Shown here piece after piece: positions 38,723-64,000 of a stretch of DNA of 64,000 nt. Numbering within the stretch: position 1 is the first letter of the stretch; each line of letters begins with the position of its first letter. A program made the position numbers and the translations under genes. This stretch comes from Escherichia coli. Lineage in GTDB: Bacteria > Pseudomonadota > Gammaproteobacteria > Enterobacterales > Enterobacteriaceae. The DNA is taken from NCBI RefSeq assembly GCF_022846255.1, contig NZ_AP025682.1; one strand, given 5' to 3'. Below the pieces are notes generated by a model. That model was not told the DNA's origin. It saw nothing but the letters and a program-made list of their open reading frames with translations, and ran no database searches.

Positions 38723-40732
38723 TACACCGATAAACTGCTCAGCAGGAATGTTCTCGGTCACGAGTCGCTCAACTGTTGTAAATATGGCATCGGGAACTAT
38801 ATATTTGAGTTTAGTTTATCTAATGACAGGAATCCTTGTGGTCGTCTTTTTCTTGAACGATGTAGGGGCTGCGCAAAGTGATTTTCCTGCTTCTGCATGC
38901 AGTCCTTCTAAGATCGTGAGAGAGAAAACATGGACATTGGGGAAAGCTGAGAGCATCAAATTATTTAACCACGACGATTTATCCCTGCTTTGTTGTACTG
39001 CCGTAATGCTTGAGCTGGATAGTCCTGAATCACGGGGAAATCTACGGCTCCCGATTTTTAATAGTTGCGACCTGATAAAACAGCACCGTATATCCTCGCA
39101 CTGAAGGGCCGGGTTTTACAGCGTACTGGATAATTGACTATGCGTTGAAGTACAAATTGATAATGCCAGCCTGAAAACAGAATTCTCTGATCTATTTACA
39201 AGACTATATACTTGACAACGACTCTCTTGTCAAGATATATTATTTGAGAGTACCCCTGTGCCACCCTGTTATGGCTATGACTCGTGTTGGTGGTATAGGG
39301 TACGCTCTGATACTTTTAATTAGGTGAATATAGCGGTTCATTTTGGAGTTTTAACGGGTAATGTGGTTGGATTGTAATCGTCCTCTGTATTATAAAGTCT
39401 GGAGGTTGCTTTTGTAGCAATATTCTGATCTGACTCCTGCAATTGGTTTCCAATGTTTACATCATAAAATCCATTTATAATGAGGATCAATTTGTAAACT
39501 ACCGAGATCCTTATTTGGGCTTTATACCAAACTTACCTACGGTTCACTCTAAATTAAGTCATTCTGTTAGTAGCTGGATTTGCTGCGAGCTGATATTTTT
39601 CATATTTTTATATCGTGATTACCTGTTATGGACTGTTCTGCAGCTTAGATCTTAGTCAAAGCTGTGTATATTCATTACTATCGTTATCTTTTACTCGTAG
39701 GATGATTATATTGCTACCTGTACCGTTTAGTCATCGTAAGTGTAGTGGTGGCCGAGGAACACCGGATCGGTATAAGGTGAAAAAGTGCTTTTTCAGGTAT
39801 CCGCGTCAATGTTATCGTAATTTTTAGTATGACGATAACCTGCCGTGACCAGCATTTTGGTTAATAATTTCAGTATAGTATCCAGTTGTAGGTCCTGGCG
39901 TGAATAGGACAAACGTATTATCTGCAAAAACAATGCTCGTTCGGAGTGTCAGTCAGTTATTCTGGTTGTATTGGATCGAGCCCTGATTGCGTGTGATATG
40001 GAAATACTCAGTTTCATAATTGGCGATATCCCGGGAAGAACTAACAAGCTGCGTTGTAGTTTTAACTTTTGCCACAATTTCGTCATATGCTGAATTACGG
40101 TTGCAGTTCCCGCCAGAATAATCGACAAAATCGTAGCCAGCGCTAATGAAATTTAATCAGTCATAAATGAAGAGTACGCTAAAGGTTTCTGGTACTAACA
40201 AAATTCGTTTTGCCATTTCAATCCTCTGTGCAGATAATTTATTGTTGGAATGAACAGATTCCGGTTAGAAAATCACATGTTGCAATCACGAGTGGGGCAG
40301 GTTGCTTGTTCGGGGAAATAATTTACCTTGATAAAATATTAAAATTGTATATCAAGTTCTAAATACATCTCAATAAAATAAACTAATTTATTTTATTCGT
40401 TAATAATAGTTTATTCTGGAGAGGTACAGACGCGGGCAGTTCACCCAGAATATGATTACTGATACGTACCTGGTTAAACAGCCCCGATGTTGATATTCAG
40501 TAATACGAAGTTTACGACTATTTATCTGATTTCATTGTTGGGGATTTTTAATCTCGACTTAATGCTAAATACGGGCCACTTTGATGTCAGCCTTATCTGA
40601 AGGTACCGATAATGAACGGACATTCTACTATATAAATAGTTCACGATTAGAACTAATTTGTAGTACTATTATGAGTAATAGTGAATCTGGGGAAAATCAG
40701 GACATGGAGCATGGCATCATCATTTTCACGCT

Positions 40733-41800
40733 TTGCAAAGCATGCAGCTGTTAATTTTACTGATACAGCAAATGAAAGATAAATTACGATTTGAAGTGAA
40801 TGATACTCAGGGCCGTTTCATCTTTCCGGAAACATGGTTCAATACACTTATAGATGAATTTGAGGAACTGGTTGAGGCATATGATGCGGAAAAAATATGT
40901 GGGAAAAACTATATAAGTGAACTCCAGCGTCTTACCGAGCAGGTGCCTGATTTTATCGATGCGTACGCTCATTTGGCATACGTGTTTCTGGAACAGAATG
41001 CGCCATATCAAGCCCTGGATATGGCGCTTAAAGGTTTAGCTGTAGGTAACCGTTTAATAACAGAAGGGTTCAATGGAGAAATTCTCTGGATATATCCAGA
41101 GAATCAACCCTACCTGCGGGCCCTTTATGCTACAATCCTTGCCAATATACATCTTCAACATCATCAGGATGCCGTCATACTTACGGATAAAATATTGACG
41201 TATAACCCAGAAGATAATCAGGCTGCACGATGGTTACTGGGACAAGAACTGTTACGTGCAGGCGAGCGTGATCGGGCGCTGACCCGGTATTCTGATGAAT
41301 TTTCACCTTATTGGTATGAACTTGGATTTCTGCTCTTTCTTAACGGAGAGTTCGTGACGGCAGCAACTGCTTTTCGCCACGGTTTTGCCACTAATATCTA
41401 TATTGCAGATATTTTATGTGGAAATCTACATCCCTTTCCACTTCCTCTGTGGCATAGTTTCTTGGGAGGACCAGACATCGCTGAAGATTATTATGCAACA
41501 TATGGTCTGTTCTGGGGGCAATATCCGGAAGCATTACTTTTCGTAAATTGGCTCTACAATCAGTCATCTGTGTTGAATGAAAGAGCAACAATAATTAAGT
41601 GTGCAGAAGCATTGTTGCGAGAAGATGATTACGAGGCATGCGAGAAGATTCTTAAAGAACAGAAGAGATTACAGGATAATATTGACGACAGGATTTCTGA
41701 GAAAATAGTTAGGAAATACCGAACATTGCAAGGGGATGAGATTTGGCCATGGATGTTACCGTCTTCAATTGATAAGGAGCTGTCCCCTTTTGATGAATAA
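40733..41800 (+). CDS. Hypothetical helical-repeat (TPR-like) protein
   Basis: 355-aa ORF of moderate GC inside an AT-rich region; repeated amphipathic helix pairs; true start may be the internal MKDKLRF. Confidence 0.5.
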   Translation: MQSMQLLILLIQQMKDKLRFEVNDTQGRFIFPETWFNTLIDEFEELVEAYDAEKICGKNYISELQRLTEQVPDFIDAYAHLAYVFLEQNAPYQALDMALKGLAVGNRLITEGFNGEILWIYPENQPYLRALYATILANIHLQHHQDAVILTDKILTYNPEDNQAARWLLGQELLRAGERDRALTRYSDEFSPYWYELGFLLFLNGEFVTAATAFRHGFATNIYIADILCGNLHPFPLPLWHSFLGGPDIAEDYYATYGLFWGQYPEALLFVNWLYNQSSVLNERATIIKCAEALLREDDYEACEKILKEQKRLQDNIDDRISEKIVRKYRTLQGDEIWPWMLPSSIDKELSPFDE

Positions 41801-54311: not shown

Positions 54312-55397
54312 ATGTCCATTCTTCGTCCGAACGAAAATCTTGCAGCAGCTCTCAGCGATGATTCAGAGTTCAGCAATAGCATGCAGTTCAGGTTAATCCT
54401 GGCAAAGACTGTTGATGCAGGAGCCCCGGTTCCAGCGGATCTGGCTCTGACGTGGGTGACAAACCATATTGAATACTCATTACGAACCCCCGCCCGCCGC
54501 TGTGCGAAAGAATTTGCTGCACTATTTAAACGGCGTTACACCCTTAAATACGGTGAAGGGATGGTAGTGAAGCCGAATAAAGCGCGTCTGCGTTTAGATT
54601 ACACGCCTGCAAGTCCCAGTTTGAGAGGTATTCGGCTTCCTGTTCCTGACTTGCCTGATCCAAGTGCATTGAAAGGCCCTGTTCAGAAGCTTATGACTCT
54701 TGCTGATATATGCACAGATGAACTGGATGCTTACAGTCGTTACCTTGGTAGAAAAGGCACTTCAGCAAATGATACCGCTGCAATTTTGTTGCTGCCTTCA
54801 GAAATCGTTAACGAAAGCGCAGATAAATTATTAAGTGCATTCAAACGCTGGGCTGATGACGCGATCCTCAGTAAGGGGGGAGTAGTTTCAGTTGCTGACT
54901 TCTGGTCACACATGAATGCTACCTGTCCGGCAAAGATCAACAAAAAAGAGGCCGACTTGATGCAGGCCTTTGCACAGAAAATGGGGTACTGCCTGGCTCC
55001 TGACCCCTATTACCACCACGTAAAAGCAAATGTCGATGGTGTTCTTGTTTTATTCCCTGCTGGTGAAAGTGGCCGCTTCTCTCCTTCTCCTGAATTTATC
55101 ACAGCTGTATTGACGCTCCGATTAGGTTCGGTAGTCGCCTTGATTGACAATTCTTTCGATCAAGCCGAACAGAAAGTGCTTGAGAATGCCATCAACAACA
55201 ATGTCAGCTTCAGCGATGATGAAAAGCGCTCTCTGCACGCATATTTAACGTGGCAGCTTCATACCCCGGCGAATATGACGGGAATGAAAAGCCGGATTGA
55301 ATTACTCGGTGCAGCGGAAAAATCAGCTGTGGGTAAGGTTATCGTTAGTGTCGCTTGCTCTGACGGCAGAATTACGCCTGCCGAAATCAAACTGTAG
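54312..55397 (+). pseudogene. IS-flanked gene fragment, possibly a TerB-like domain protein, 3'-truncated by the IS911 insertion
   Basis: 361-aa ORF lying exactly between the IS2-group right end and the IS911 left end. Its stop codon TAG lies within the first bases of the IS911 terminus. The TerB-like call rests only on the weak pattern DNSFDQAEQKVLENAINNN...DDEKRSL. Confidence 0.35.
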
Positions 55398-55464
55398 TGG
55401 CACACTGAATTTGGCCACCTGAACAGAGGTGATATGCTCACCTCAGAACAACACAGGTGCTCCA

Positions 55465-56633
<1,169 letters not shown>

Positions 56634-57056
56634 CCACTACAAATATCATTATATTGGAATAATTATAAAACTGAACAAAATGGTCAATGTAATCTGGTTA
56701 ATTTATAAATATTTACATTGCGTGATGATATTTAATTCCAGTGTTAAGTAATGTCACATGCCTATTATTGGTTACTACTTTGTAGGTGTTTTGGTTCGGC
56801 GTTAATATCATTGGTCATAATCACCTGTGAAAGTTTATTCTTGAAATGTTATAGGTATATTACTTGCAATTAAAAATGAGAAATTTATTATTATTGTGTT
56901 TTGCAAATATAATAATTAAAAATTTATTATAAATTATGATTAGAACTGACAATATAAAAGAATAATAAAACTCAATATGAAAATAATTATCATCTGGTAT
57001 GATACTTTTGCTGTTGATTACAGGAATAAAGTGTCAGAATAATATTGTTATTGGGT

Positions 57057-57084
57057 AAAAAAAGCCTCCACTATATGTGGAGGC
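57057..57084 (-). terminator. Strong Rho-independent terminator-like hairpin on the - strand in AT-rich DNA downstream of the integrase gene
   Basis: Perfect 8-bp inverted repeat GCCTCCAC/GTGGAGGC with loop TATAT, followed by a 7-T tract on the - strand. Confidence 0.45.
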
Positions 57085-57758
57085 AAACCCTTAGATAGTT
57101 CTATTGAGGCAAGTATGTTATAAATCTGCCTTATCTTTTATAGCATATAAAGATATGTATGCTATATTGTTTTTTGAAGAAATTTTTCCAGAAATTACAG
57201 TAATACAAGAAATATTAACCGGTGTGATTTTTGGATGTTTAATAAGTACAGTGTAGTGTACTTATATTTTTGTAATAAAGATGAACGCGTCCTTTAGATA
57301 AACTGAAAAATATTAAGCATGTCTCATGTGGTTTTCTGAATCAAAACTCTTTTCAGTCTTTGGTTTTTTGTTAAAAACAGGTTTATTGCAAGGGTGTTGT
57401 TGTGAAATGTGTTTTGGTGTCGTTGTGATTTTATGGTGATAATGTGAATTTTTATCCTTTCAAGATGGCTCCCTGGACGTTAAATACAGTGGAAATTTAT
57501 ATTAAGATATAAATATAACTATTGCGTTATTTAAATTATTGTCTATTACAGCTCCAGTTAATAGAGCCTGAAGTAATTTCTTAGTATTTCATCATAAGCG
57601 TTTATCTATCGTCTCTTTCTAAATTAACCGGTCGTATTACAAGGTGCTGAATCTGATTAAGGAATGATACTTAGGGGATTATGGCTGACTTAATAATTAG
57701 ATAACTGATAAATGACTATCAGGGGGATATCGTTAAGTCAGCCTTTAAAATCAAGCGA

Positions 57759-58949
57759 TTATATAGCTGGTGACTCTTTTCGAAGAGCATCAAGGTAGTC
57801 AGCGTACCATTGCATCATTTCTCGTCTTCCTTCAAGGTAACGAGCATGGTTGTATGTACCACGAATGCTGTTTTTGTCCGTATGTGCAAGTTGCATTTCA
57901 ATCCATGCACTATTGAATCCTTGCTCGTGTAGAACAGTACTCATTGTATGACGAAATCCATGCCCGGTAGCTTTTTTGTCATAGCCAATCTTCTTCAAAA
58001 CCATATTGACGCTTGCATCGCTGATAGGCCTGTTAACATCATTTCTTCCGGCAAAGATGTATCTGTATCTTCCAGTCAGTTCTTTGAGGATTTGCAGAGA
58101 CTGGATTGCCTGATCTGACAGAGGGACGATATGCTCCTTCCTCATTTTCATCCGGGTCGGAGGAACTTCCCATATCTTTTGGGTAAAATCGATCTCACAC
58201 CATTCCCCCATACGTAATTCTACTGTTCTCAGCCCTGTGAGCATCAACAATTTTGTAGCTTCACGGGTTACAATACTGCCGGTGTAGTTTTCGAGTTTGT
58301 ATAAAAACTCTGGTAGTTCAGGAGGAAGCAGGAAAGGGTAATGTGTTCGCTTATAGCTTTTCATTGCTATAACCAGATCAGAAGCTGGATTGTATCGTGC
58401 CCGACCTGTAACAATGGCATACCGAAACACTTCACCACATCGTTGGCGAACTTTATTAGCTAGCTCGCAGGCTCCTCGGCTTTCGATACGCTGAAGAACT
58501 GCGAGAAGTTCAAGAGGTTCGATTTCACTAATGGGTCTGTTTCCAATGTAGGGAAACACATTATTTTTGAATGCTCTGTCGACATAATCAGCGTAGCTGG
58601 CAGACCAGCCTGAAACTTTTGCGTTGTACCACTCGGTGGCGATTGCGGCAAAAGTTCTTCCTTCGGAAAGGTTTTTCTCAAGATTTTCAGCTTTCTTGAC
58701 TTCACCGGGATCTTTACCATCGGCATGTATTTTCTTGGCTTCATCCCGACGTTTGCGAGCTTCAGCCAATGTAATAGTTGGATAGGTGCCAAATGATAGT
58801 TTCTTTTCCTTCCCCGCATAGTGGTACTTCATTCGCCAGTACTTTGAGCCGTTAGGATTGACCTGAAGGTAGAGCCCACCACCATCGGCAATCTTATAAA
58901 TTTTATCTTTGGGTTTGGCTGTTTCAACTTGTCGAGCTGTCAGTGGCAT
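57759..58949 (-). CDS. P4-type tyrosine integrase
   Basis: Start placed at MPLTARQVETAKPKDKIYKIADGGGLYLQV (typical P4-Int N-terminus); C-terminal catalytic motifs HGFRHT...Y. Confidence 0.8.
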   Translation of the reverse strand: MPLTARQVETAKPKDKIYKIADGGGLYLQVNPNGSKYWRMKYHYAGKEKKLSFGTYPTITLAEARKRRDEAKKIHADGKDPGEVKKAENLEKNLSEGRTFAAIATEWYNAKVSGWSASYADYVDRAFKNNVFPYIGNRPISEIEPLELLAVLQRIESRGACELANKVRQRCGEVFRYAIVTGRARYNPASDLVIAMKSYKRTHYPFLLPPELPEFLYKLENYTGSIVTREATKLLMLTGLRTVELRMGEWCEIDFTQKIWEVPPTRMKMRKEHIVPLSDQAIQSLQILKELTGRYRYIFAGRNDVNRPISDASVNMVLKKIGYDKKATGHGFRHTMSTVLHEQGFNSAWIEMQLAHTDKNSIRGTYNHARYLEGRREMMQWYADYLDALRKESPAI

Positions 58950-59076
58950 CTGGGGGCCTCGCAATAGATTGACCAAGATGTGCCCCTAAATAGGCCCCCA
59001 AATGTGACTTGATTTACGTTCCCCTGAGGAGAATTAAGGCGACTATTTGAGTAACATAAGTAAGGGTATGTGCTGA

Positions 59077-59640
59077 TTATAAAGGCTTTTTGTGGGGTAT
59101 GGTAGATTTCAGGAGAGGTGTGCATGGTGTCCCCTGCAGAATGATGTAAACACCTGCTGCGAAGGTAATAGATTGCATGATGGAGAACATGAACCAGTTT
59201 TTACCACCACTAAGCTCTTTCACCACATCTGCACGCGCAAACAGGCACGTCACCAGGAAAATTATGCTCATGGTAAAAGAGATAGCAACCGGCGTGTCGC
59301 GCAAGAACAGCAGACTTTTCGGCACATTCATGTCTTCAGTCGAGTGGTCTTTATTACCAAACTTGCTGCCGATGAAACCGGCCAATACATAATATAATGT
59401 TGAGAAGTGGCCGATGGCAACGTCATCAGAACCGGTCACTTTCTTCATGTACGGATGCGCAATAGCCGGGAAAAAGACCATTGCCACGCCAACAACCAAA
59501 GAGCCAACGGCTATAAGCGTAATGCCGGTCATGCCTGCTGTTGCCAGAATTACCGCTACCATCATCGACATAAACAACGTGTGATGACCGGTCAGGAAGA
59601 TAAATTTCCACGGTGTGAAACGGGCAATCAGAATGTTGAT
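59077..59640 (-). pseudogene. Internal fragment of a PTS ascorbate-family (SgaT/UlaA-like) EIIC gene
   Basis: Minus-strand translation ...FLTGHHTLF...IGH...STEDMNVPKSLLFLRDTPVAISFTMSIIFLV...ILQG parallels the central region of UlaA-type IIC proteins; no N-terminus, and it diverges before the C-terminal half. Confidence 0.4.
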
Positions 59641-59642
59641 AA

Positions 59643-60014
59643 CCATCAGAACCGCTGGACTATCCCTCGGAAACGTTAGCTGAGATCCGCCATACCGGCG
59701 CACGAGCCGGGCTGGCATTTAATCCGGCGACCCCAATCGACGCCTGGCAATATCTAGCGTCTGAGCTGGACGGCGTGATGGTGATGACCTGTGAGCCCGA
59801 TGGGCACGGACAGCGGTTTATTCCCTCTATGTGCGAGAAAATCCAAAAAGTACGCACGGCTTTTCCTCAGACCGAGTGCTGGGCCGACGGTGGAATTACG
59901 CTGGCGGCAGCACAGCAACTGGCTGCAGCCGGGGGGCAGCATATGGTGATTGGGCGCGTCTTGTTCTTTTCATCTGACTATCGCGCGACCTTAGCTCAAT
60001 TCGCCACCCTGTAA
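59643..60014 (+). pseudogene. 3' fragment of a ribulose-phosphate 3-epimerase-family gene (SgcE/Rpe-like)
   Basis: In-frame translation ...TLAEIRHTGARAGLAFNPATPIDAWQYLASELDGVMVMTCEPDGHGQRFIPSMCEKIQKVR...ECWADGGITLAAAQQLAAAGGQHMVIGRVLF matches the C-terminal half of Rpe (GLVFNPATP ... GFGGQSFIP ... VDGG ... AAGAD). A TAA at 59640-59642 closes the frame upstream. Confidence 0.55.
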
Positions 60015-60030
60015 GAGGAGATTGTTTCTG

Positions 60031-60813
60031 ATGAGCCAACAGAGACCTGACCGTATCAAACAGATGCTGCACTACCTGTGGCAACATCGTCACCTCTCCA
60101 CACAGCAGGCCATGGAGCTTTTTGGCTATGCGGAGGCGACTGTCCGTCGTGATTTTCAGTATATTGCCAACCAGTACCCAGGAATGATCCGCGGTCACGG
60201 TTGTCTCGACTTCGACGACAGTACTGACGACAAAGAGTACGTTTTCGATGTGAAACGTACATTGCAATCTGTGGCGAAGAGAGAAATAGCCGCCCTTGCC
60301 CGAACGATGATCAAAGATGGCGACTGCTTTTTTCTCGACTCCGGCTCAACCTGCCTCGAACTGGCGAAATGCCTGGCCGATGCACGGGTGAAGGTCTCCT
60401 GCAACGACATTAAAATCGCCAATGAGCTGGGCTGTTTTCCCCATGTGGAAAGCTATATTATCGGTGGACTGATTCGCCCGGGTTATTTTTCGGTAGGAGA
60501 GAGTCTGGCGCTGGAGATGATCAATGCCTTTTCCGTAGAACGTGCGTTTATCTCCTGCGATGCGCTGTCGCTGGAGACGGGGATCACCAATGCCACCATG
60601 TTTGAGGTCCGGGTGAAAACACGGATTATTCAACGCTCGCGTGAAGTTATTCTCATGGCCGAACACTCAAAATTTGATGCCGTTGAGCCGCATGCTGTAG
60701 CAACACTCTCATGTATTAAAACGATCATTAGTGACAGCGGGTTACCTGAGACTATTGCACAGCGTTATCAGCGAGCCGGATGTCAGTTGTTTTTACCTCA
60801 TTCAATAAAGTGA
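60031..60813 (+). CDS. DeoR-family transcriptional regulator (SgcR-like)
   Basis: GAGGAG RBS before ATG 60031; N-terminal HTH and C-terminal DeoR sugar-binding domain; sits between the epimerase fragment and the yjhI-like gene as sgcR does in KpLE2. Confidence 0.7.
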   Translation: MSQQRPDRIKQMLHYLWQHRHLSTQQAMELFGYAEATVRRDFQYIANQYPGMIRGHGCLDFDDSTDDKEYVFDVKRTLQSVAKREIAALARTMIKDGDCFFLDSGSTCLELAKCLADARVKVSCNDIKIANELGCFPHVESYIIGGLIRPGYFSVGESLALEMINAFSVERAFISCDALSLETGITNATMFEVRVKTRIIQRSREVILMAEHSKFDAVEPHAVATLSCIKTIISDSGLPETIAQRYQRAGCQLFLPHSIK

Positions 60814-61115: not shown

Positions 61116-61904
61116 ATGGTTCGCAAAGGGTGTAATTCATTAGTCCGTGCTGAAAAAATATTAACCCACATTGCATGGGTTGGTATGGCAAGTTATATGG
61201 AGTTATTAAATAAATTTCAGTACCCAAAAAGCAGCCTGCTTAATTTATTGAATGTAATGGTGGAGTGTGGTTTCTTAATTAAAAACAAAAACGGCTACTA
61301 TTCACTGGGAATAAAAAACTACGAATTGGGTTGTCAGGCGTTACACCGCCAAAATATATTTGAGGTGACTAAGCGGCCAATGCAGGAGTTGTCGCTGAAA
61401 AGTGGACTGGTTTGTCATCTTGGGGCGATGGAGAGCATTTCGGCTATTTATCTCGACAAGATCGAAAGTCCGGACTCTGTACCGACGAGCAAAAGCTGGA
61501 TTGGCAAAAAACTTGAGTTGCATATTACCGCGTTGGGTAAGGCATTATTAGCCTGGAAGACACGAGAAGAATTAGATTATTTTTTAGAAGCACTCACGTT
61601 AACTCCGCATACGCGCAATACATTTACCGATAAAAAATCATTTCTGGAAGAATTACAAAAAACACGCCTTCGGGGATGGGCCATAGACAACGAAGAATCA
61701 ACCTATGGTGCGGTATGTTTAAGTATGCCGGTATTCAATATGTATAACAGAGTTAACTATGCAATCTCACTTTCTGGCGATCCGGTAATTTATTCAGGAA
61801 ATAAGATAGACAGCTATCTGGAGTTGCTCCGGAAATGCACAGGGCAAATATCATATGGGCTGGGATACAGAAACGAAAATGAGCATTTACGAAAAGGAAA
61901 CTGA
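61116..61904 (+). CDS. yjhI: IclR-family regulator (YjhI/XynR-like)
   Basis: 262-aa ORF with an AAGGAGGAG RBS, directly upstream of yjhH/yjhG-like genes. Confidence 0.65.
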
Positions 61905-61908
61905 GGTA

Positions 61909-62814
61909 ATGAAAAAATTCAGCGGCATTATTCCACCGGTATCCAGCACGTTTCATCGTGACGGAACCCTTGATAAAAAGGCAATGCGCGAAGTTGCCGA
62001 CTTCCTGATTAATAAAGGGGTTGACGGGCTGTTTTATCTGGGTACCGGTGGTGAATTTAGCCAAATGAATACAGCCCAGCGCATGGCGCTCGCCGAAGAA
62101 GCTGTAACCATTGTCGACGGGCGAGTGCCGGTATTGATTGGCATCGGTTCCCCTTCCACTGACGAAGCGGTCAAACTGGCGCAGCATGCGCAAGCCTGCG
62201 GCGCTGATGGTATCGTCGCCATCAACCCCTACTACTGGAAAGTCGCCCCACGAAATCTTGACGACTATTACCAGCAGATCGCCCGTAGTGTCACCCTACC
62301 GGTGATCCTGTACAACTTTCCGGATCTGACGGGTCAGGACTTAACCCCGGAAATCGTGACGCGTCTGGCTCTGCAAAACGAGAATATCGTTGGCATCAAA
62401 GACACCATCGACAGCGTTGGTCACTTGCGTACGATGATCAACACAGTTAAGTCAGTACGCCCGTCGTTTTCGGTATTCTGCGGTTACGATGATCATTTGC
62501 TGAATACGATGCTGCTGGGCGGCGACGGTGCGATAACCGCCAGCGCTAATTTTGCTCCGGAACTCTCCGTCGGCATCTACCGCGCCTGGCGTGAAGGCGA
62601 TCTGGCGACTGCCGCGACGCTGAATAAAAAACTACTACAACTGCCCGCTATTTACGCCCTCGAAACACCGTTTGTCTCACTGATCAAATACAGCATGCAG
62701 TGTGTCGGGCTGCCTGTAGAGACATATTGCTTACCACCGATTCTTGAAGTTTCAGAAGAAGCCAAAGAAAAAGTCCGCGCACTGCTGTCCGCGCAAGGTA
62801 TTTTATCGGACTGA
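61909..62814 (+). CDS. yjhH: DapA-family 2-dehydro-3-deoxy-D-pentonate aldolase (YjhH-like)
   Basis: Start at [50 protein letters not shown], recalled as near-identical to K-12 YjhH. Confidence 0.8.
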
Positions 62815-62824
62815 GGAGAGGATC

Positions 62825-64000
62825 ATGTCTGTTCGCCATATTTTTGCTGACGAAAGTCGCGATATCTACACCGTCAGAACCCACGCAGATGGCCCTGACG
62901 GAGAACTGCCTCTGACGGCGGAAATGCTCATCAACCGCCCGAGTGGGGATCTGTTCGGGATGACCATGAATGCCGGAATGGGCTGGTCTCCGGACGAGCT
63001 GGATCGGGACTGTATTCTACTGCTCAGCACACTGGGAGGGGTACGCGGGGCAGACGGTAAGCCCATCGCGCTGGCGTTGCATCAGGGCCACTACGAGCTG
63101 GATATCCAGATGAAAGCGGCTGCGGAGGTAATCAAAGCGAACCGTGTCCTGCCCTATGCCGTCTATGTTTCCGATCCGTGCGACGGACGAACTCAGGGTA
63201 CGACGGGTATGTTTGACTCGCTACCGTACCGTAATGACGCCGCCATGGTGATGCGTCGTCTTATCCGCTCTCTGCCCGATGCAAAAGCCGTCATAGGCGT
63301 GGCGAGCTGCGACAAGGGACTTCCGGCCACCATGATGGCGCTTGCCGCGCAGCATAACAAAGCGACGGTGCTGGTGCCCGGTGGCGCGACTCTACCCGCA
63401 GGGGATGGGGAAGATAACGGCAAGGTGCAGACCATCGGTGCCCGCTTCGCCAATGGCGAGTTATCACTACATGATGCCCGCCGTGCGGGTTGTAAAGCCT
63501 GTGCCTCCTCCGGCGGCGGCTGCCAATTTCTGGGCACCGCCGGGACATCACAGGTAGTAGCTGAAGGATTAGGACTGGCTATCCCGCACTCAGCACTGGC
63601 CCCATCCGGCGAACCGGTGTGGCAGGAGATAGCCAGAGCCTCCGCGAAGGCGGCGTTGAACTTATGTAAACAAGGCATCACCACCCGGGAAATACTTACC
63701 GATAAAGCGATTGAGAATGCGATGACGGTCCATGCGGCGTTCGGTGGTTCAACAAATCTGTTGCTGCATATTCCGGCGATTGCCCATCAGGCCGGCTGCC
63801 ATATTCCAACCGTTGACGACTGGATCCGCATCAACAAGCGGGTGCCCCGACTGGTAAGCGTACTCCCCAATGGTCCGGTTTATCACCCGACAGTGAATGC
63901 CTTCATGGCGGGAGGTGTGCCGGAGGTGATGCTGCATCTTCGTAGTCTGGGATTGCTGCATGAAGACGTGATGACGGTCACCGGCAGCACGCTGAAAGAA
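62825..64000 (+). CDS. yjhG: D-xylonate dehydratase (IlvD/EDD family, YjhG-like); partial, 3' end beyond the window
   Basis: ATG at 62825 with open frame to the window end (392 codons). N-terminus [61 protein letters not shown] recalled as YjhG. Confidence 0.75.

Follow-up and report, generated by a model that had tools for sequence, protein, structure and literature searches.

An antisense PTS IIC fragment abutting the 3′ part of sgcE in Escherichia coli, and a second junction at an argW-type attachment core

In the stretch of Escherichia coli DNA analysed here (64,000 nucleotides, the window in what follows), an internal piece of a phosphotransferase system (PTS) EIIC gene lies in antisense orientation directly against the 3′ part of the epimerase gene sgcE, and the comparison with other genomes confirms this arrangement as real. 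We consider it quite probable that two successive rearrangements inside a mosaic kps/pheV-type genomic island of an E. coli-like genome best explain the region as a whole. The older one would be a deletion that joined EIIC to sgcE (junction A), the younger one a recombination that brought the attachment core of an argW-type integrase element into the EIIC remnant (junction B). The coordinates of the features are collected in Table 1.

Table 1. Features of the window around the two junctions
Feature	Position	Strand	Description
IS3-family element	55393-56641	+	complete; left boundary of the integrase remnant; terminal inverted repeats TGTAGTGG...
argW-type island remnant	56642-59124	-	2.5 kb; intact P4-like tyrosine integrase and attachment-site-proximal arm
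Integrase ORF	57759-58976	-	complete; annotated start ~58949
Chimeric 213-aa ORF	59077-59718	-	crosses both junctions; 24 aa antisense sgcE, 171 aa EIIC, 18 aa attachment site/spacer
argW 3′-terminal 15 nt	59125-59139	-	CTGCAGGGGACACCA in tRNA sense; part of the 19-bp attachment-site identity block
Junction B	59132-59139		8 nt CCCTGCAG common to argW core and native EIIC; crossover between integrase element and EIIC
EIIC site at junction B			centred on CATCATTCTGCAGGGTGTG
EIIC pseudogene remnant	59132-59647	-	internal, codons 105-275 of 418; ascorbate/galactitol type; cut at both ends
sgcE pseudogene	59648-60014	+	3′ 58%, codons 90-210 plus stop; without N-terminal part
sgcR	60031-60813	+	DeoR-family regulator, intact; Pfam HTH_DeoR and DeoRC
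yjhI	61116-61904	+	intact; xylonate catabolism module
yjhH	61909-62814	+	intact; xylonate catabolism module
yjhG	62825-64000	+	open to the window end; xylonate catabolism module

Two gene fragments and the exact position of their join

Searching the complete E. coli genomes places the EIIC homology at 59132-59647 and the sgcE homology at 59644-60020. In the base-by-base three-way alignment EIIC identity stops at 59647 and sgcE identity runs from 59647/59648, so that mid-EIIC meets mid-sgcE at 59647/59648 and the C at 59647 is the only base common to both parents. An initial annotation of the sequence had assumed a breakpoint at about 59640; a true breakpoint does exist there, and its exact position is 59647/59648. 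The in-frame TAA (59640-59642) upstream of the sgcE fragment belongs to the antisense EIIC part and is found 6-7 nt to the left of the join. The overlap amounts to 1 nt and the three-way alignment reveals neither a repeat nor an attachment-site-like motif at junction A, which indicates a non-homologous (illegitimate) join. The same join, with 99-100% identity in the flanks, is present in independent assemblies of 11 of the 5426 complete E. coli genomes, and therefore it is neither a product of chance nor of misassembly.

The EIIC piece as well as the epimerase gene had been described as fragments, which agrees with our results (EIIC residues 105-275 of 418; SgcE residues 90-210 of 210). The alternative of two full-length genes in an unusual arrangement does not apply, each gene being truncated both in the alignments and in its Pfam coverage. 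On the minus strand 59132-59646 encodes 171 aa without stops, which match the Pfam profile PF03611 (EIIC-GAT) at positions 98-266 of 394 (E 1.4e-54; 186 bits with a cut-off of 24.2) and are 97% identical to residues 105-275 of the 418-aa IIC WP_000345347.1; at the DNA level the fragment is 98% identical to the intact gene in strain DP051. Its own start and stop and both ends of the profile are missing, and the IIB and IIA partner genes, which are found beside EIIC in DP051 and AH25, are absent beside the fragment of the window. On the plus strand 59649-60011 encodes 121 aa corresponding to residues 90-210 of the 210-aa SgcE, with a match to PF00834 (Ribul_P_3_epim; E 1e-36) at profile positions 90-198 of 198. 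Homology begins at sgcE nt 267 (codon 90), and instead of a complete barrel a protein lacking the N-terminal 89 residues would be encoded. The assignment to sgcE is based on the conserved downstream sgcR and on the protein identity, which is 95% with SgcE of AH25 and 92.6% with that of the K-12-like allele. Judged by their sequences, neither the EIIC nor the sgcE fragment should be able to encode a working protein.

The position 59077, from which the initial annotation let the feature begin, is merely the stop codon of the chimeric 213-aa ORF, and EIIC homology actually ends at 59132. No evidence was found that this ORF is a gene. Promoter-like sites around the region are no more common than in shuffled sequences, their total count corresponding to the shuffle expectation. 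The ORF is therefore better not annotated as a gene.

A deletion scar between two operons

The two fragments had been traced back to one former sgc/ula-like operon, and an alignment with the K-12 sgc operon had been proposed as a check. Once this comparison was run, the IIC fragment adjacent to sgcE did not match SgcC, neither the K-12-like nor the AH25 protein giving a blastp match at E<=10; its 97% counterpart is the IIC of a LacI-linked operon. The idea of a single source operon had thus to be given up. The sequence comparisons indicate that the EIIC piece is neither sgcC nor ulaA but derives from a separate LacI-linked IIA-IIB-IIC operon, and that two different operons, each of them truncated, are represented here. 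An intact IIA-IIB-IIC operon, with a LacI-family regulator encoded divergently from it, is found in the pheU island of DP051 and in the leuX island of AH25. The DP051 pheU island was rejected as the ancestral site, as no sgc genes are present within 40 kb of its intact EIIC operon.

The closest intact sgcE-sgcR allele is that of AH25 (97.3%). Written in the orientation of the window, AH25 has the order transposase(+), EIIC(-), IIB(-), IIA(-), LacI(+), about 16 kb with an aga-like PTS, a polysaccharide lyase and an autotransporter, and then ′sgcX, sgcB, sgcC, sgcQ, sgcA, sgcE(+), sgcR(+). Even in this strain sgcX is incomplete: only 120 bp of its 3′ end are left, and these are fused to a helicase pseudogene (L013 36514-36633; L013 is the AH25 locus). 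AH25 and the window share the same genes in the same order and relative orientation, but AH25 retains ~22 kb which are missing from the window, and its island is located at leuX while that of the window lies in the kps/pheV region. Both flanks of junction A align with AH25 at 97% identity (left, L013 16548-17738; right, 39886-41101), in collinear order and with unchanged relative strands. The junction itself maps to L013 positions 17738 and 39886-39890, which are ~22.15 kb apart, and taking out L013 17739-39889 (~22.15 kb) yields junction A exactly. This interval is absent from the window and from locus L001. As in a simple deletion scar, both sides keep the collinearity of an intact arrangement and the DNA between them is gone; neither side is inverted relative to AH25.

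The initial annotation had left open whether an inversion or a deletion was responsible, and of these two only the deletion stands. In AH25 the EIIC operon and sgcE are already on opposite strands, with EIIC ~22 kb upstream, so that the fragment has kept its native antisense direction; one deletion suffices and no inversion has to be assumed. An inversion with an endpoint at ~59640 could have flipped part of a single sgc/ula-like operon, whose own IIC would now be antisense to sgcE. This would fit the location of the fragments on opposite strands and the K-12 sgc operon, in which the IIC gene sgcC is on the strand of sgcE. However, such an inversion is hardly credible given that the fragment is not sgcC but 97% identical to a different IIC, that either side of the join aligns in the order and orientation of AH25, and that the window is without an inverted copy of the missing sgc genes.

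The K-12 sgc operon (KpLE2 region; sgcX-B-C-Q-A-E-R, yjhI-H-G-F-U) shares with the window the order and orientation of sgcE-sgcR-yjhI-yjhH-yjhG. In comparison to K-12, sgcE of the window is only ~94% identical, and sgcX-sgcA as well as the first 89 sgcE codons are lacking.

As the older of the two steps we propose that an ancestral AH25-like island, in which the LacI-linked PTS operon (-) was located divergently upstream of sgcX-B-C-Q-A-E-R (+), underwent a single non-homologous deletion of ~22 kb from IIC codon 104/105 to sgcE codon 89/90. It would have removed IIA, IIB, lacI, the block with the aga-like PTS and the polysaccharide lyase, and sgcX through sgcA, leaving two 5′-truncated genes head to head with 1 nt shared. 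Order and collinearity are observed in the alignment with AH25, and the deletion mechanism is what we infer from them. The reference for the ancestral interval differs in strain and tRNA site, the AH25 island being at leuX and the 11 join-bearing genomes having theirs in the pheV island, and the ancestral interval may have differed from that of AH25 in content and length.

The scar as such is already known, as it is annotated in other strains as two pseudogenes. In the RefSeq annotation of SCEC020001, one of the 11 genomes, C7V21_RS05505 is a ‘PTS ascorbate transporter subunit IIC, incomplete’ of 951 bp with a missing N-terminus, and C7V21_RS05510 (‘epimerase, incomplete, missing N-terminus’) is the same piece as the sgcE fragment of the window. 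The window is 99-100% identical to SCEC020001 from 59132 to ~62130, and the scar is therefore regarded as identical by descent. SCEC020001 and the 10 other complete genomes resemble the window in the EIIC/sgcE join and in the downstream sgcR-yjhI-yjhH-yjhG. They differ from it to the left: their EIIC remnant is 951 bp long, with the natural 3′ end kept and no adjoining integrase, whereas that of the window has been cut to 516 bp by the join to the argW attachment core and the integrase.

This difference bears on the suggestion that the integrase-bearing element had broken the operon. An intact integrase is indeed encoded 670 bp away from the join. However, insertion or excision of this element is a most improbable origin of junction A, since the identical join occurs in 11 genomes without the integrase and with more of EIIC kept to the left, since the 1-nt overlap comes without any attachment-site-like sequence, and since the element has its own boundary elsewhere, at 59132-59139. 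As judged from these sequences junction A predates the integrase element, which would have made a separate, later break at 59132-59139. Of the breakpoints in this region the initial annotation had found junction A and missed this second one.

A further, inverted remnant of the same IIC gene is found in the leuX island of DP033 (L011 15651-16098). It is cut at a position matching 59579 of the window and sits between transposase fragments, 3 kb from yjhI. DP033 was considered as an intermediate and rejected: with an EIIC remnant that is inverted and truncated at a different point it represents an independent rearrangement. The IIC gene has thus been disrupted on at least two independent occasions.

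The argW attachment core and the second junction

The homology to argW islands is confined to 56642-59142, and over the remnant the identity to the int-argW region of FDAARGOS_536 (L003 1947-4444) amounts to 99.4%. Its integrase contains the Pfam domains Arm-DNA-bind_3, Phage_int_M and Phage_integrase, and its DNA is 99.9% identical to the genes encoding WP_001131472.1. In 269 genomes the same integrase (99.9% identity) is found directly beside the tRNA-Arg gene argW, next to yfdC. In FDAARGOS_536 the argW island extends from argW to just before dsdC, with a 19-bp direct repeat, ATTCCTGCAGGGGACACCA, at its two ends; this repeat is the 3′ end of argW. If one missing G is allowed the repeat reaches 23 nt, from the first T-loop base. 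The attachment site at the far end of this island (L010 25895-25935) reads TTC-ATTCCTGCAGGGGACACCA, with one G missing in comparison to the T-loop-to-CCA block of argW, and the perfect repeat is there 19 bp long although the block would be 23 bp.

In the window, the homology of the integrase region runs to 59142 and that of EIIC starts at 59132. The crossover CCCTGCAG is located within the 19-bp repeat and a complete tyrosine integrase is encoded next to it, as is expected of an attL-type site. The window contains no second core at the far end of the element with the rest of the target beside it. The argW core has one exact match there, the missing 3′ 430 bp of EIIC, which correspond to L001 7571-8000, are likewise not found in it, and ARAGORN predicts no tRNA anywhere in the window. 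Junction B was not found among the 5426 complete E. coli genomes, and its exact 26-mer gave 0 matches in genome_contigs and 0 in metagenome_contigs. A synthetic reciprocal junction (EIIC 3′ part and argW 5′ part) gave no place covering both halves in the 5426 genomes.

The use of tRNA 3′ ends as attachment sites, with an adjoining integrase gene, is stated as a general principle in PMC1635311, and argW islands such as PAI-CFT073-argW are found among those listed in PMC7545054. For the position of the integrase crossover in tRNA T-loops our literature search gave just a general statement. Like the tRNA attachment sites of P4-like integrases in argW islands, junction B lies inside the identity block. 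In contrast to these islands, the partner here is not argW but a site within a PTS pseudogene; of the tRNA no more than 15 nt remain, an intact tRNA is absent, and the element comprises only 2.5 kb.

As the second, younger step the P4-like tyrosine integrase of an argW island could have recombined this island with a secondary site, located in the IIC remnant, that shares CCCTGCAG with the 19-bp core, and in this way integrase, attachment core and EIIC would have been joined at 59132-59139. On the basis of the sequence we give an even chance to the reading that the argW-specific P4-like integrase produced junction B by using a secondary site that lies within coding sequence of another island, one island being nested in the other through an 8-bp core identity. 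It is weakened because neither a second core nor the 3′ part of IIC is present in the window, because no reciprocal joint was found, and because joining by microhomology is possible.

In the latter case junction B would be due to microhomology-mediated illegitimate recombination or to an IS-driven deletion, with the integrase uninvolved and the position in the core coincidental. The overlap is just 8 nt, neither a reciprocal product nor a second attachment site was found, IS-mediated rearrangements are abundant nearby, and junction A demonstrates that illegitimate joins occur in this region. However, the break lies within the very 19-bp identity block in which this integrase family recombines, this block is directly beside an intact integrase gene, within a region of homology exceeding 2.5 kb, and a random endpoint would by our own estimate fall into the block in less than ~1% of cases. 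We therefore regard the microhomology or IS origin as possible but doubtful. An assembly artefact could be suspected as junction B is seen in this window alone and as none of the complete E. coli genomes covers 80% or more of 40000-64000. This we consider very unlikely, because the 8-nt overlap is far below the length of repeats that cause misassembly, and 11 independent complete assemblies contain junction A as well.

On its left side the argW-type element is truncated by the IS3-family element at 56641/56642. This IS, with an orfB ORF at 55794-56633, shares 88.5% identity with a copy of the ISEc52 family in DP033. It is without a target-site duplication, because the flanking triplets AAC and AAT differ, and the mismatched triplets point to an IS-associated loss of the rest of the island and of the left part of the IIC remnant. 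In a third step, integrase-mediated joining would then have been followed by an IS3-family-associated rearrangement which left only 2.5 kb of the argW island (56642-59139) and also took 430 bp at the 3′ end of the IIC remnant out of the neighbourhood. The left end of the IS provides the stop codon of an ORF at 54312-55397, which is probably truncated.

The private junction between attachment core and IIC is the only mildly novel element of the region, the rest being an ordinary deletion scar.

The surrounding island and the consequences for annotation

The left 34 kb of the window comprise the kps capsule region and genes of the pheV island. In detail, 4505-34283 contains the kps capsule export region, Ag43 and CP4-like pheV-island genes and is 98.8% identical to strain 82.0311. 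Positions 1-4500, including an ORF of 1117 aa (37-3390), have no match in strain 82.0311 and are probably the serotype-specific capsule region. Between 43946 and 50342 a module of IclR, DHDPS-family, UxaA-family, PdxA-family and MFS genes is ~87% identical to its counterparts in leuX islands such as that of DP033, and it is far more diverged than the remainder of the window.

To the right of the scar the regulator and the xylonate genes had been expected to be intact, and so they are as far as the window reaches (sgcR, yjhI and yjhH, with yjhG open to the window end). The start of sgcR follows 16 nt after the stop of sgcE, the gene aligns without gaps and with 99.5% identity to the annotated sgcR of SCEC020001, and every sgc gene normally upstream of it is missing. 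The yjhI-yjhH-yjhG region aligns ungapped to L001. Along with the other genes of its operon, sgcR has been deprived of any promoter formerly located upstream, and its expression may be reduced. A scan found no promoter-like site on the plus strand upstream of sgcR, which is uninformative, the total count being at the shuffle expectation. Between 62130 and 63630 (3′ end of yjhH and 5′ part of yjhG) the identity to SCEC020001 falls from 99-100% to 88-95% and then returns to 100%; this segment looks like a recombination patch within the xylonate genes.

For the annotation it follows that the EIIC and sgcE pieces should be entered as pseudogenes. The strain should be scored negative for the sgc PTS pathway and for the LacI-linked IIA-IIB-IIC PTS, and positive for the yjhIHG xylonate module, which it has kept. 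Beyond correct annotation the significance is small. Found in at least 12 genomes, the scar can serve as a marker for the common descent or the transfer of this island module. The private junction B illustrates on a small scale how an attachment core from a tRNA-targeting island can come to lie within another island, and if the integrase was indeed involved, it would represent a site-specific route of mosaic pathogenicity island assembly, besides the IS-mediated and homologous routes.
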